Shown here piece after piece: positions 14,974-58,440 of a stretch of 64,000 nt of DNA; position 1 is the stretch's first letter, and every line of letters begins with the position of its first letter. The stretch is from an uncultured Candidatus Saccharibacteria bacterium (GTDB lineage Bacteria > Patescibacteriota > Minisyncoccia > Phycocordibacterales > DATDWN01). Under the pieces are notes generated by a model that saw nothing but the letters and a program-made list of their open reading frames with translations, did not search any database and was not told where the DNA came from. The translations under genes were made by a program, and so were the position numbers. The stretch lies in assembly GCA_964426735.1 (NCBI GenBank), contig CAYRRP010000003.1, positions 77,378 through 141,377 of the forward strand, written 5' to 3'.

Positions 14974-15053
14974 GGTAAATCAATTTTTGAGTAAAGATAC
15001 GAATTAAATACTTTTAACTTTCTTATTCGTAACTATGTGTATTATTCGTATAT

Positions 15054-15824
15054 TTATTTTATAAGGTCAACGTTATTGATAATGCCTACAAAATTTTCCA
15101 CTTTAAGAGACTCTCGACCAACCAAAAGTCCGTCAACATAACCTCTTTCGACAATTTCTCGTGCATTATCTGCTGTCACTGCGCCACCGTAGAGTACTTT
15201 TGGCAATGGAGCCATTGTGCCATACATTTCCTTAATACATTTCTGAATATATAACGACATTTCATGTACCTGGTGTGAATTCATCGCTTCTTTAGCGCCG
15301 ATAGCCCACACAGGCTCATATGCAATAACTACATCGGAAATAACACTCTTTGACACTCCCGCAAGACCTGATGCAAGCTGACTTTTAATTAACCCGAGGT
15401 ATTCTCCGTGTTCATCTCGAACTGACTCACCGATACATAATACAGGAATAAGCTTATTCTCAAGTGCTCGACTCACCTTTTTAGATACAGACGTGTCGCT
15501 TTCCCCACGAACTCGTCTTTCAGAATGCCCGATAATAACGTATGCAACTTTAAACTGAGAAAGATGTTGCGCTGAAACCTCACCTGTATATGACCCGGAT
15601 GTTTCTTCATGTATATTTTGTACACCCAACGCAACTTTTTTAGAGACCAATCCTTTAAGTTCAGAAACATATACAAATGGCGGACATACAACAACATCAG
15701 TATTTTTAGCTTTTACACTACCCTTTTTAATACCCTCAACTAACTTTTTAGCTTCCTTCGTGGTAAAAATATTCATTTTCCAATTACCAATAACAAGTTT
15801 TTTCTTTTTTAGTGCCATACGCAC
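15054..15824 (-). CDS. tpiA: triosephosphate isomerase
   Basis: GNWKMN, IIGHSERR and YEPVWAIG motifs. Confidence 0.95.
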   Translation of the reverse strand: MRMALKKKKLVIGNWKMNIFTTKEAKKLVEGIKKGSVKAKNTDVVVCPPFVYVSELKGLVSKKVALGVQNIHEETSGSYTGEVSAQHLSQFKVAYVIIGHSERRVRGESDTSVSKKVSRALENKLIPVLCIGESVRDEHGEYLGLIKSQLASGLAGVSKSVISDVVIAYEPVWAIGAKEAMNSHQVHEMSLYIQKCIKEMYGTMAPLPKVLYGGAVTADNAREIVERGYVDGLLVGRESLKVENFVGIINNVDLIK

Positions 15825-15829
15825 ATAAT

Positions 15830-15896
15830 ATCATAAAATACATAAGCATCACGAATGGACGTCCAACAAAAAAGTAGATGAAGTGATTTTACTGAT
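15830..15896. repeat. short member (copy D) of the conserved intergenic structured-element family
   Basis: It shares the 3' consensus AAAAGTAGATGAAGTGATTTTA with copies A, B and C. The outer stem is ATCATAAAAT / ATTTTAcTGAT, and the inner palindrome is GGACGTCC. Confidence 0.5.
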
Positions 15897-15897
15897 G

Positions 15898-17379
15898 TTA
15901 TCTTGTCTCTTCCCAAGAAATGATTTGGTATTGATCTGATGTCAATGGAAAACTCGGAGGCGGCCCGTACAATAAGTTGGCATCATAAATAATATCTCGA
16001 CTGTCGTATCCTGTACCGTCTGTGTATGCAAAACCGTATCGTAAACTACTTGCAATCATTCCGTACAGTGTCAATGAAGCTTTACTGTCATCCGAACATG
16101 ATGTTTCGTAATAATACCTTCCTGCACGTCCATTTTGTGCAACAAGTGCCGCATCTATACGAAGATTATTTGCTGAATACTGACCAACGTTTACGTTACC
16201 TTGCGATATAAGAGAGATTACATCTCGTCCATCATAATTTGTATATAATAAATTTGCATTGATTGTAATACTTGGTCGTGTTGCAGGGTTATCTGGGAAA
16301 CGTCCTACTGCAAGCGTCACACGAGCAGTATCAATCTGTCCATCTACCCACACATTATCTTCAAGGAAAATCAATCCATTCGAAGGAATCGCATAATTAC
16401 CGAGCAGTGTCTGCCCTCCTCCACCAGATGTTCGTATACTCCATGAACCCCACCCTGTTTGATTTTGCACATTAGAACAATTATTACCCACAGACTGAAG
16501 TGCAGTAACTCGATACAAATCAAACGTATCATTTGTTTTAAATACTACACGATACCCTTGATACCCTGATGCAGCAAAATATCTTCCTCCTGTTTGTGCA
16601 CCTGATTTAATTGACGCGAGATCAGTCGTCAATCCAACAAAATCAACCGCCGGAAGCGGAAATTGTCTACCTGATTCAAATACATCAGGTCGAGCAGGTA
16701 CACTATTTGGTGGTGCTTCGGCAGAACGAAACGTATCATTCACAGTACCACCTGGCAATGTTACGTGAGTATGCACTCCAAACTCATTGTTTCCTGAATG
16801 ATCAGGGTCATCATATACATCTCGCGAAGACGAAATAACGTTGTGAGCAAGTCCGTCAAAACGAATTCCACCGTTTGAGTGAATAGGGCCATAGACTTCA
16901 GTACCCTCTCCAAATCGAAGACTGTCATTGCTTACCACTGCATATTTTGCGAGAGATGGAATTGCAAAACGAGCAGTAATTGACCGCGCAACAGAAGGAT
17001 CATCGGTGATACGTCCAGTTGATTTTACAGTCACAATAGTAAACCCTGGTTGTGGTGGAGTAATCTCAAGAGTAAAGGAGCCAATCTGATTTCCATCTTT
17101 ATCATAAAATGGACGCACAGAAGGTGTGCTTGTACCAGTACCATCCTGATAGTCAGTCGGTGCATGTGCAAGATGCCATCGATAATAATCGACTCCAGAT
17201 TCTGCAATTTGAAGGGCTTGCTCTCTATACAATGCAAGACGTGACGCTTTAATATTTAATCCTGCCCAAGAAACCAGTCCTCCAATAATCACAACTGCAA
17301 TACTTCCAAACACAAGTGCTTGAACAAGAAGAGAACCTTTTTGTAGTTGGTATCCAGTAGTGGTGTGTATCTTTTTCAT
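15898..17379 (-). CDS. type IV pilus assembly protein, PilX-like (N-terminal PilX_N-type hydrophobic segment)
   Basis: N-terminus QKGSLLVQALVFGSIAVVIIGGLV. It is a large Gly/Thr/Asn-rich extracellular protein in a cluster with prepilins, pilC and pilB. Confidence 0.6.
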   Translation of the reverse strand: MKKIHTTTGYQLQKGSLLVQALVFGSIAVVIIGGLVSWAGLNIKASRLALYREQALQIAESGVDYYRWHLAHAPTDYQDGTGTSTPSVRPFYDKDGNQIGSFTLEITPPQPGFTIVTVKSTGRITDDPSVARSITARFAIPSLAKYAVVSNDSLRFGEGTEVYGPIHSNGGIRFDGLAHNVISSSRDVYDDPDHSGNNEFGVHTHVTLPGGTVNDTFRSAEAPPNSVPARPDVFESGRQFPLPAVDFVGLTTDLASIKSGAQTGGRYFAASGYQGYRVVFKTNDTFDLYRVTALQSVGNNCSNVQNQTGWGSWSIRTSGGGGQTLLGNYAIPSNGLIFLEDNVWVDGQIDTARVTLAVGRFPDNPATRPSITINANLLYTNYDGRDVISLISQGNVNVGQYSANNLRIDAALVAQNGRAGRYYYETSCSDDSKASLTLYGMIASSLRYGFAYTDGTGYDSRDIIYDANLLYGPPPSFPLTSDQYQIISWEETR

Positions 17380-57159: not shown

Positions 57160-57178
57160 ATTTACCATTATATTTATG

Positions 57179-57607
57179 AGATTCCAAGTACCACAATTTA
57201 TTGAAATAGAAGATAAAATCGTAGGACCACTGACGCTTAAGCAGTTTTTGTATCTCGCTGGATCAGTAGGTATGTCAATTATTGCATATCGTTTTCTTCC
57301 ACTTATTGTAGCGATTATTGTGATTGCATGTGTTGGTTCACTTGGTATAGCTCTCGCATTTTTTAAGTACAATAACAAACCTTTTATCGACCTTCTTGAA
57401 TCAGGTGTACAGTATTACTTGGGAGAAAAACTATACATTTGGAAAAAAAGGGAGCGGGTTGTTGAAAAACAAAATACTGCTGATAAAAATCCTGCTCAAG
57501 TATATGTACCTCGTTTATCTGACAGTAAACTTAAAGAGCTCACCTGGAGCTTAGATATTAAAGAAAATCAAAACCCAGTTACTCGGGAAGAAAGTAGATT
57601 AAAGTAA
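57179..57607 (+). CDS. PrgI/VirB3-like small membrane protein
   Basis: …KIVGPLTLKQFLYLAGSVG… followed by two TM helices, and its position immediately upstream of VirB4. Confidence 0.5.
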   Translation, partial: RFQVPQFIEIEDKIVGPLTLKQFLYLAGSVGMSIIAYRFLPLIVAIIVIACVGSLGIALAFFKYNNKPFIDLLESGVQYYLGEKLYIWKKRERVVEKQNTADKNPAQVYVPRLSDSKLKELTWSLDIKENQNPVTREESRLK

Positions 57608-57679
57608 AAGGATTACAGAATAATTCTTATTCATTAATCCTACTACCTTAATCATTAATCAATCTGGTATACTATTCTT

Positions 57680-58318
57680 ATGGCTATTCCTTCTAAAGCA
57701 ACACAAGATTTTGTACCTATCAAAGAAATACGTGATGGGGTAGTACTGCTCAAAGATAATTCTATGCGTGCCGTACTCCTCGCATCTTCTTTAAACTTTT
57801 CTCTTAAATCAGAAGATGAGCGAAAAGGTATTTTATACCAATTTCAAGATTTTCTTAACTCACTTGATTTTCCACTTCAAATCTTTATCCAGTCACGAAG
57901 ACTTGATATTAGACCATATATTGCTCTTCTTGAAGGTCGGTATAAAGAACAGATGAATGATTTGATGAAAATTCAAACTCAAGAATACATTGAATTTATT
58001 AAAAAGTTTACTGAGTCGACCAATATTATGACAAAAAGTTTCTTTGTGGTTGTTCCATACACTCCCGCACTGATCCAAGGAAAAGGTATAGATCCTACAA
58101 GTTTTTTTGGCAAGAAAGATGCGGATGATGCTGTAAAAAAACGCATGGTGAATTTTGAAGAAAACAAGACTCAGCTCGAACAAAGAATGGCAATCGTGGA
58201 ACAAGGACTTGTACGTTGTGGAATCAGAGTGGCACGTCTTGGAACAGAAGAAGTGGTAGAATTATTTTATAAAATATTTAATCCAGGAGAAACAGAAAAA
58301 CCAATCCAAGTGAGCTAA
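57680..58318 (+). CDS. VirB4/TraC-family N-terminal domain encoded as a separate ORF
   Basis: …PIKEIRDGVVLLKDNSMRAVLLASSLNFSLKSEDERKGILYQFQDFLNSL…QIFIQSRRLDI matches the N-terminal region of Gram-positive-type VirB4 proteins. Confidence 0.55.
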   Translation: MAIPSKATQDFVPIKEIRDGVVLLKDNSMRAVLLASSLNFSLKSEDERKGILYQFQDFLNSLDFPLQIFIQSRRLDIRPYIALLEGRYKEQMNDLMKIQTQEYIEFIKKFTESTNIMTKSFFVVVPYTPALIQGKGIDPTSFFGKKDADDAVKKRMVNFEENKTQLEQRMAIVEQGLVRCGIRVARLGTEEVVELFYKIFNPGETEKPIQVS

Positions 58319-58382
58319 CTATACGAATATGCGAATGAAAAACTTACGAATAACCACGAATACAGAAAATCAAAATGTTTTT

Positions 58383-58440
58383 TATTCGTATACATTCGTA
58401 GATTCGAATTATTTGTATATTCGTATATTTATTTAAAACT
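58383..58440 (+). promoter_or_regulatory. ATTCGTA heptamer array plus TATTCGTATATTTAT box (second copy) in the gap between the two VirB4 ORFs
   Basis: tttATTCGTAtacATTCGTAgATTCGAattatttgtatATTCGTATATTTATttaaaactATG, the same module as 26755..26806. Confidence 0.5.

Follow-up and report, generated by a model that had tools for sequence, protein, structure and literature searches.

Arrays of ATTCGTA heptamers at gene boundaries in Patescibacteria: a probable dispersed repeat with a promoter-like box and a nuclease-encoding form

What is the short array that tig, virB4 and the tpiA/pgk junction have in common? These boundaries lie in a 64,000-nt stretch of contig CAYRRP010000003.1 (recorded as an uncultured Candidatus Saccharibacteria bacterium; hereafter the window, to whose whole length all window coordinates refer), and each has direct repeats of the heptamer ATTCGTA ending in a conserved box. 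The answer proposed here, to which we give a probability of roughly 60%, is that each array is a copy of one dispersed, polar repeat, whose full form includes a nuclease gene and whose box serves as a promoter where it faces a gene start, and that the three loci in the window are to be read in this way. Next to nothing has, to our knowledge, been established about promoters, gene regulation or mobile DNA in Patescibacteria, also called the Candidate Phyla Radiation (CPR), and literature searches found no description of ATTCGTA arrays.

The arrays are genuine and greatly exceed chance expectation. The 15-mer TATTCGTATATTTAT has perfect matches at 15043–15057 (+) and 58418–58432 (+), and the tig copy at 26789–26803 (AATTCGTATATTTAT) has one mismatch to it; with up to two mismatches the window contains four matches against 0.29 expected, a number reached in none of 100 shuffles. 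Exact ATTCGTA occurs 20 times (8.6 expected), with 11 of the 20 in three intergenic clusters, and five or more same-strand heptamers (one mismatch at most) are found at only two sites, 26755–26796 and 58384–58425. The three loci are present as the first-pass annotation described them from the letters alone, including a heptamer spacing of 8–10 nt (10, 9, 8 and 8 nt at tig; 10, 8, 9 and 8 nt at virB4). The tpiA/pgk box is on the + strand, opposite to the two genes. The annotation's placement of the box 10–15 nt before the start codon was wrong, the box ending 4 nt (tig) and 8 nt (virB4) short of the ATG, and its statement that virB4 has the same arrangement as tig is correct for the forward array and box but overlooked an inverted arm in the same spacer. 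Pfam matches bear out the assignment of the flanking genes: trigger factor (tig), a VirB4/TraC-like ATPase, PGK and TIM. In Rfam searches at the gathering threshold the window gives tRNAs alone and the arrays in 18 loci give no match, and a known RNA family was rejected as the identity of the arrays.

The element is polar and ~52 nt long, with five ATTCGTA-like heptamers (H1–H5) at 10/8/9/8-nt spacing, and ends in the box TATATTTAT. The consensus is TT-ATTCGTA-GCC-ATTCGTA-G-ATTCGNA-TN-ATTCGNA-T-ATTCGTA-TATTTAT, in which the last heptamer and the box together form ATTCGTATATTTAT. A scan of one genome per GTDB species (185,579 species genomes) with the pattern ATTCGTA-N(1-30)-ATTCGTATATTTAT gives 45 loci, of which ~33 are in Patescibacteria metagenome-assembled genomes (MAGs) and have full arrays of one architecture; the matches in other phyla are bare chance matches without arrays. 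A hidden Markov model (HMM) built from ten canonical copies and searched with nhmmer over the Patescibacteria loci and the window identifies 54 arrays. A second scan, of metagenomes, was keyed on the H1-GCC-H2 part only and is independent of the first set; it yields at least 176 arrays in 708 kb among the matches listed. Copies in Patescibacteria MAGs number in the hundreds, and the element belongs to a clade within Patescibacteria, the records being labelled Zambryskibacteria, Parcubacteria, Paceibacterota or Minisyncoccota. In a scan of viral contigs all 11 matches are chance occurrences with no arrays, and carriage of the arrays by phages was rejected.

Taxonomic breadth is not read from these labels. 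One locus labelled Zambryskiibacteriota (L034; JAPLZY01) is syntenic with window genes 6751–17379 (72–84% identical, and 54% for one partly covered gene), and another labelled Saccharibacteria (L029; CAYJEE01) is syntenic with window genes 25600–31942 (69–99% identical). At least one of the two labels is wrong, since both loci are syntenic with the window at 72–98% protein identity. The closest VirB4 and trigger-factor homologues carry names such as Minisyncoccota, Paceibacterota and Parcubacteria, and the source is accordingly taken here to be a Paceibacteria-type patescibacterium. An exact-sequence look-up of the tig protein of the window returned no record, whereas homology searches list a 100% identical protein both for tig and for VirB4. 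Conservation of the arrays across classes was considered and withdrawn, the differently labelled loci both being close and syntenic to the window.

There are two forms of the element: single arms, and back-to-back inverted doublets of 110–130 nt that fill the whole spacer between tandem genes. An inverted partner is located within 90 nt in 25% of arms, against 0.5% in controls. Two doublets in one genome (SIBV01; L005 6065–6190 and L032 1357–1485) are ~88% alike by eye, including the non-repeat centre, which suggests copy-paste or gene conversion between loci; they sit at different ribosomal-protein junctions. A single forward arm (L136 2814–2866) is also present within a 23S rRNA gene, where it occupies the 3′ end of a group I intron (core AAGATATAGTC) directly before the sarcin-ricin-loop exon, and two further loci (L170 and L127) have one at the homologous position. 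The 23S rRNA gene of L136 also contains a LAGLIDADG-type open reading frame (ORF) in another insertion.

The box end directly adjoins a gene boundary, which is either a start codon or the stop codon of a convergent gene. In the first set 29 arms face a start codon and 24 reach or run into a convergent gene's stop codon; the distance from box to ATG is −3 to +8 nt in 27 of the 29 start-facing arms, with a mode of +3 (i.e. TATATT-N6-ATG). The metagenome set has 61 start-facing arms, 48 stop-facing arms and 60 in other contexts among the matches listed, and the start mode is again +3. Pooled, the ratio of starts to stops is 90:72 (72/162, 44% stop), which is not different from 1:1 (binomial p = 0.18). 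The H1 side lies at a variable distance from the neighbouring gene, and the gap often contains a terminator, an ordinary promoter or the partner arm. An A/G difference in the box between start and stop arms (TATATT versus TATGTT) was suggestive in the first set and was not reproduced in the metagenome set. A link between orientation and replication was also set aside; the three boxed copies in the window all lie on the + strand, in DNA whose GC skew is negative over its full length, but the doublets contradict a simple rule.

At virB4 the spacer aligns over its whole length with doublets of other loci. The inverted left arm (58316–58361, − strand; nhmmer E = 0.003) has TACGAAT-type heptamers at 58322, 58330, 58345 and 58355, and its outer end contains the TAA stop codon (58316–58318) of a TraC-like gene. 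The doublet centre ACAGAAAATCAAAATGTTTTTT (58362–58383, no strand) is followed by the forward right arm (58384–58432, + strand; E = 5.5e-14), with heptamers at 58384, 58394, 58402 (ATTCGAA), 58411 (ATTTGTA) and 58419 and the box at 58424–58432, upstream of the virB4 ATG (58441). In six orthologous loci (VirB4 98, 95, 93, 88, 88 and 85% identical) the TraC-like gene ends 1–5 nt before the virB4 ATG, and the 122-nt doublet (58319–58440) is present in the window only and missing from all six. This is a clear filled/empty polymorphism and shows the arrival of the doublet as a unit, which is best understood, from these alignments, as a recent insertion separating two formerly adjacent type IV secretion system (T4SS) genes. 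It is bounded by the TAA at 58316–58318 and a second TAA at 58434–58436 (+ strand), a possible target-site duplication, and the original spacer was probably AACT. The surrounding region (57176–62746) is a monoderm-type T4SS cluster that includes a PrgI family gene (57176–57607), the TraC-like gene (57680–58318; 212 aa), the VirB4 gene (58441–60246) and a weak TrbC/VirB2-like gene (61814–62746). VirB4 is unusually conserved, at 85–100% identity across many MAGs, which is far more than tig.

The tpiA/pgk copy (14991–15057) seems to be a decaying doublet with a stop-side box that is still perfect. The remnant of the stop-abutting arm (15025–15057, + strand) retains heptamers at 15025 and 15044 and the box at 15049–15057, within which lies the tpiA stop codon (15054–15056, − strand); the remnant of the pgk-facing arm (ATTCGTATCTTTAC; 14991–15004, − strand) precedes the pgk ATG (14973) by 17 nt. 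In the orthologous spacer of L034 the doublet is complete. The spacer between the rny-like gene and hup (window 31458–31575, L029 5729–5830) is wholly different in the two genomes, with flanking genes that are 97–99% identical. In the window a 509-aa gene is followed by a canonical terminator enclosed by GACT-type inverted repeats, and at the same place L029 has an ATTCGTA doublet with a perfect 16–17-bp inner stem. The two genomes do not differ in the hup promoter (TTGCAC...TGGTATATAAT) downstream.

The full-length form has two arms enclosing an ORF of ~126 aa, which was noticed repeatedly on the H1 side of stop-abutting arms and which tblastn identifies inside doublets at six distinct junctions among the pattern-selected loci. 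Its only Pfam and NCBIfam matches are PF13366 (PDDEXK_3) and TIGR04256 (GxxExxY), of the PD-(D/E)XK nuclease family. The gene overlaps its arms at both ends. The left arm's inner heptamers supply the start codon (TACGA-ATG-GCT-ACG-AAT, encoding MATN) and the right arm's first heptamer supplies the stop codon (CAT-TCG-TAA, encoding HS-stop). A protein database search returned 437 homologues, and among the best 120 of 437 (63–99% identical), which were inspected for their termini, 95 have MxTN near the N-terminus (ATG-nCT-ACG-AAT, i.e. the heptamer) and ~85 have a heptamer-encoded C-terminus ([HND]S or S[YF][NH]S, then stop). All 22 aligned members have the PD-(D/E)XK core residues D69, E79 and K81. 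Loci fetched by the protein alone, with no selection for a DNA motif, have the same arms, between an ABC permease gene and its ATPase gene and at dnaB/recR; at the latter junction one genome has a gene-less doublet (L045) and two have the gene-containing form (L181 and L124). Nested GxxExxY genes are found at L030 (574–951), L173, L124/L098, L143, L147, L035 and L177–L182. The distant homologue in L035 (~50% identity) is flanked by the variant heptamers TACTAAT/TACTGAT, which hints at co-variation of protein and repeat.

A gene-containing version of the element exists, which might be the autonomous relative of a miniature inverted-repeat transposable element (MITE), although its product is a PD-(D/E)XK protein and not a recognised transposase. 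Literature searches found no reported function for GxxExxY proteins, and the sole entry found lists PF13366 as 'unknown, multiple transfers'. The consensus, including its spacers, is shared across genomes, which points to continuing constraint by a conserved trans-acting factor, and GxxExxY would be the obvious candidate. By analogy with known repeat systems we infer that GxxExxY is the arms' partner, the protein by which they are recognised or mobilised.

The tig locus bears on the box as a promoter. Upstream of tig (26808–27878) is a single forward arm (26753–26803, + strand; E = 2.6e-6) with H1 at 26755–26761, H2 at 26765–26771, H3 at 26774–26780, H4 at 26782–26788 (ATTCGTT), H5 at 26790–26796 and the box TATATTTAT at 26795–26803. 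Directly before the array is the intrinsic terminator (26719–26747, + strand; 13-pair stem and T-rich tail) of the upstream gene (26370–26693). The arm is the sole candidate promoter between this terminator and the ATG, and unless tig relies on read-through of the terminator its promoter has to be inside the array. The array is identical over 52/52 nt in L029 (tig 86% identical), where the adjacent spacer is only ~55% identical and has indels. In L191 (tig 74% identical) H1–H3 with their unusual AAA and TC spacers and the TATATTTAT box are kept and H4 and H5 have decayed; L189 (tig 78% identical) has no array and another promoter-like sequence in its place. The tig arm is, from these comparisons, an old copy common to three lineages.

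The geometry of the tig box resembles that of the ordinary promoters in the window. Of the 59 window genes, 31 carry a TAnnnT hexamer 4–10 nt upstream of the ATG, with 6, 7 and 9 nt the commonest distances; the hexamer is often preceded by TGn or TGTGn, and there is no −35 signal. Longer leaders containing GGAGG occur in a minority of genes. The ordinary promoters resemble TGnTAnAAT 6–9 nt before the ATG (e.g. 32546–33094 −, 57680 +, 40407–41393 − and 9129–10874 −). The host appears to use extended −10 promoters that lack a −35 element and give leaderless mRNAs; no published description of leaderless promoters in Patescibacteria was found in literature searches. At tig the putative −10-like hexamer TATATT (26795–26800, + strand) is 7 nt before the ATG (TATATT-N7), within the 6–9 nt typical of such promoters, and the mode of the family is N6. 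Because this geometry matches that of the ordinary leaderless promoters of the genome, tig is probably driven by the promoter-like box of the arm, with a leaderless or near-leaderless mRNA. At virB4 the spacings of TATATT-N11, or TATTTA-N9, to the ATG are marginal for leaderless geometry, and the box may or may not drive the gene.

In the proposed mechanism arms would spread as a dispersed element that settles at gene boundaries with its box end against a start or stop codon, and GxxExxY would act on them as a REP-associated tyrosine transposase (RAYT) acts on REPINs, the hairpin-forming doublets of repetitive extragenic palindromic (REP) sequences, or as an autonomous element acts on its MITE. 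Arms that face a start codon would supply a promoter, with TATATT ~6 nt before the ATG in the geometry of leaderless promoters that lack a −35 element. The three window loci would represent an old conserved copy acting as a promoter (tig), a recent insertion (virB4) and a decaying doublet (tpiA/pgk). Dispersal of this kind explains why copies occur in both orientations, why they are placed flush with genes to the point that stop codons lie inside the box, and why there are both singlets and doublets. It also explains the gain, loss and replacement of copies in close relatives, the similar copies within one genome, the intron copies and the nested nuclease gene.

Several observations weigh against parts of this interpretation. 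Arms aim at stops about as often as at starts, and the box conforms to TAnnnT no better in start-facing arms (39/61) than in stop-facing arms (39/48); for these two reasons promoter function is not what maintains the family as a whole. The 11-nt distance at virB4 fits the promoter geometry poorly, and the arrays have neither a −35 element nor a TGn, the hexamer being preceded by TCG; a consensus scan of the arrays finds no −35/−10 pair. There is no GxxExxY gene within the 64-kb window, and the protein could instead be a parasite homing into pre-existing host elements. The TAA duplication is seen in one filled/empty pair only, and TAA is also a stop codon. While the doublets have terminal inverted repeats, no coding capacity and many copies, ~75% of arms are single. 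Similarity between arrays is nearly the same within a genome (0.772) as between genomes (0.759), which is unlike a recent burst of transposition and fits long-term constraint by a trans-acting factor. Dispersal alone, conversely, does not explain the long conservation of the tig copy and the sharp N6 peak, which are best read as the retention of copies that supply promoters.

The strongest competing explanation, which we nevertheless consider unlikely, is a host regulatory element, in which a conserved regulator would bind the heptamers cooperatively in either orientation, in the manner of MetJ, omega or Fur, and control many housekeeping promoters; GxxExxY would then be either that regulator, autoregulated inside its own sites, or a selfish gene homing into the arrays. 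It accounts well for a consensus that is alike across many genomes, spacers included, with little genome-specific drift, for the long conservation at tig, for the overlap of arrays with the −10 to −52 region of likely promoters, and for arrays upstream of ordinary extended −10 promoters (L010 and L043). It is at odds with the 44% of classified arms that abut stops, some of them in convergent spacers with no promoter to regulate, with the absence of the site from the virB4 orthologues and from one tig orthologue, and with adjacent spacers of one ribosomal-protein operon that carry different repeat families. Nor do the downstream genes have a common theme (ribosomal proteins, rpoC, map, dnaJ, recR, fpg, pilM and ABC transporters), and related genes, orthologous loci and a fixed orientation, as in an operator array, are not found. 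The first-pass annotation had proposed a dedicated promoter or operator class shared by unrelated genes; a shared promoter-like cis element with a −10-like box is indeed present, but it does not define a regulon or co-regulation, because the genes are heterogeneous, stop-facing arms are about as frequent as start-facing ones, the virB4 copy is missing in orthologues and the full-length form carries a nuclease gene. Its sharing between unrelated genes is the dispersal of a repeat element.

A role as structural punctuation is improbable. Here selection would act on the long hairpin that two back-to-back arms can form, either in DNA or in read-through RNA, as a terminator, RNase III site or 3′ stabiliser between adjoining genes that each have their own leaderless promoter. 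The doublets do fold strongly (−35 to −49 kcal/mol, z −6 to −11.6; −35.1 kcal/mol and z = −6.0 for the virB4 spacer), the L029 doublet occupies the site of a canonical terminator in the window, and two doublets with non-consensus H1–H2 spacers have these matched in both arms (ACC/ACC and GTT/GTT). However, only a quarter of arms are paired with an inverted arm within 90 nt, arms on their own show no RNA structure (z = +1.5 at tig), and arms of the same locus are no more alike (0.72) than arms of different loci (0.75). There is no U-tract or terminator-like site at virB4 (58100–58600), and the stems of the doublets are long and A+U-rich, unlike those of intrinsic terminators. Compensatory evolution between doublet arms was sought in the same similarity values and none was seen. 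An RNA-level element (a 5′ untranslated region or binding sites) was rejected, since in half of the copies the RNA would contain the reverse complement and since a terminator precedes the tig array.

Chance AT-rich low-complexity sequence with no positional meaning, the condition under which the annotation would have had its own claim dropped and for which the G+C content of ~39% and a near-chance rate of isolated heptamers in coding DNA could be cited, is refuted by the shuffles, by pattern scans in which chance matches in other phyla and viruses have no arrays, and by the HMM search, with one 52-nt architecture repeated at hundreds of loci.

Beyond the dispersed polar repeat itself, a wider proposal is tentative and rather less probable: that the proteins of the large GxxExxY (PDDEXK_3) family are trans-acting nucleases of an undescribed REPIN-like class with heptamer-array arms, which would distribute portable leaderless promoters and possibly terminators among Patescibacteria genomes. 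Joined to it, and held with the same reserve, is the suggestion that such elements have shaped the one-gene-one-promoter organisation of these streamlined genomes and that the GACTTT and TTAATC families are parallel systems. Other direct-repeat arrays do occur in spacers, including GACTTT(A) at alternating 7/9 nt, AATGACTA, TTAATC/GATTAA, GAAAATT and AATTCAT; they are frequently arranged as arms placed back to back, and a −10-like hexamer (TAAACT or TAGACT) ~6 nt before an ATG frequently forms their end. In the window these are located at 22951–22981 (− strand), before the ATG (22940) of a PilB/GspE-like gene, at 44153–44184 (+ strand), before a Mg-chelatase-like gene at 44202, and at 2102–2140 (− strand) and 45769–45790; further examples are in L005 (5366–5458) and L033 (15- and 20-copy arrays).

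Where unrelated genes share a motif in these genomes, the cause can be the spread of a repeat and need not be co-regulation. If the dispersed repeat and its nuclease are as proposed, they would give the widespread orphan GxxExxY family its first functional context, provide a clear case of a dispersed repeat with a promoter box, with consequences for gene calling and operon prediction in the CPR, and offer a candidate promoter module for the genetic tools under development for Patescibacteria.

Among known systems, repeat-array operators such as the MetJ met-boxes, the omega heptads of pSM19035 and the Fur hexamers have 2–10 short direct or inverted repeats with a 6–8-bp period placed over core promoters. 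These define regulons at fixed promoter positions, whereas about half of the arms described here abut stops, loci gain and lose copies, and no cognate regulator is known. The leaderless promoters of Actinobacteria and Deinococcus (GeneMarkS-2 group C) similarly have TAnnnT 6–9 nt before the start, no Shine-Dalgarno sequence and ATG starts; here, however, the hexamer is the end of a repeat element, and the ordinary promoters of this genome use TGnTAnAAT. The closest analogues are the REPIN/RAYT systems and the Correia elements. With the REP/REPIN-RAYT systems of Proteobacteria the element shares short intergenic repeats in many copies, an inverted doublet with a hairpin as the replicative-looking unit, common singlets, a small gene flanked by inverted repeats alongside dispersed gene-less doublets, and copies between tandem or convergent genes. 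It differs in that the arm is a ~50-nt array of five direct heptamers rather than a 20–40-nt palindrome, the protein is a PD-(D/E)XK GxxExxY protein and not an HUH/Y1 transposase, the ORF overlaps the inner heptamers, and the arms carry an outward-facing −10-like box. Correia elements, which are MITEs of Neisseria, are 100–155 bp long with inverted ends, insert at gene boundaries with duplication of a TA-containing target, carry outward promoter elements at their ends, form hairpins in transcripts and vary in insertion between strains. The doublets resemble them in size, inverted ends, gene-boundary insertion, outward promoter-like elements, hairpins and insertion polymorphism, but are unrelated in sequence and belong to another host clade, with ends built of heptamer arrays, a gene-containing version and a leaderless promoter that lacks a −35 element.

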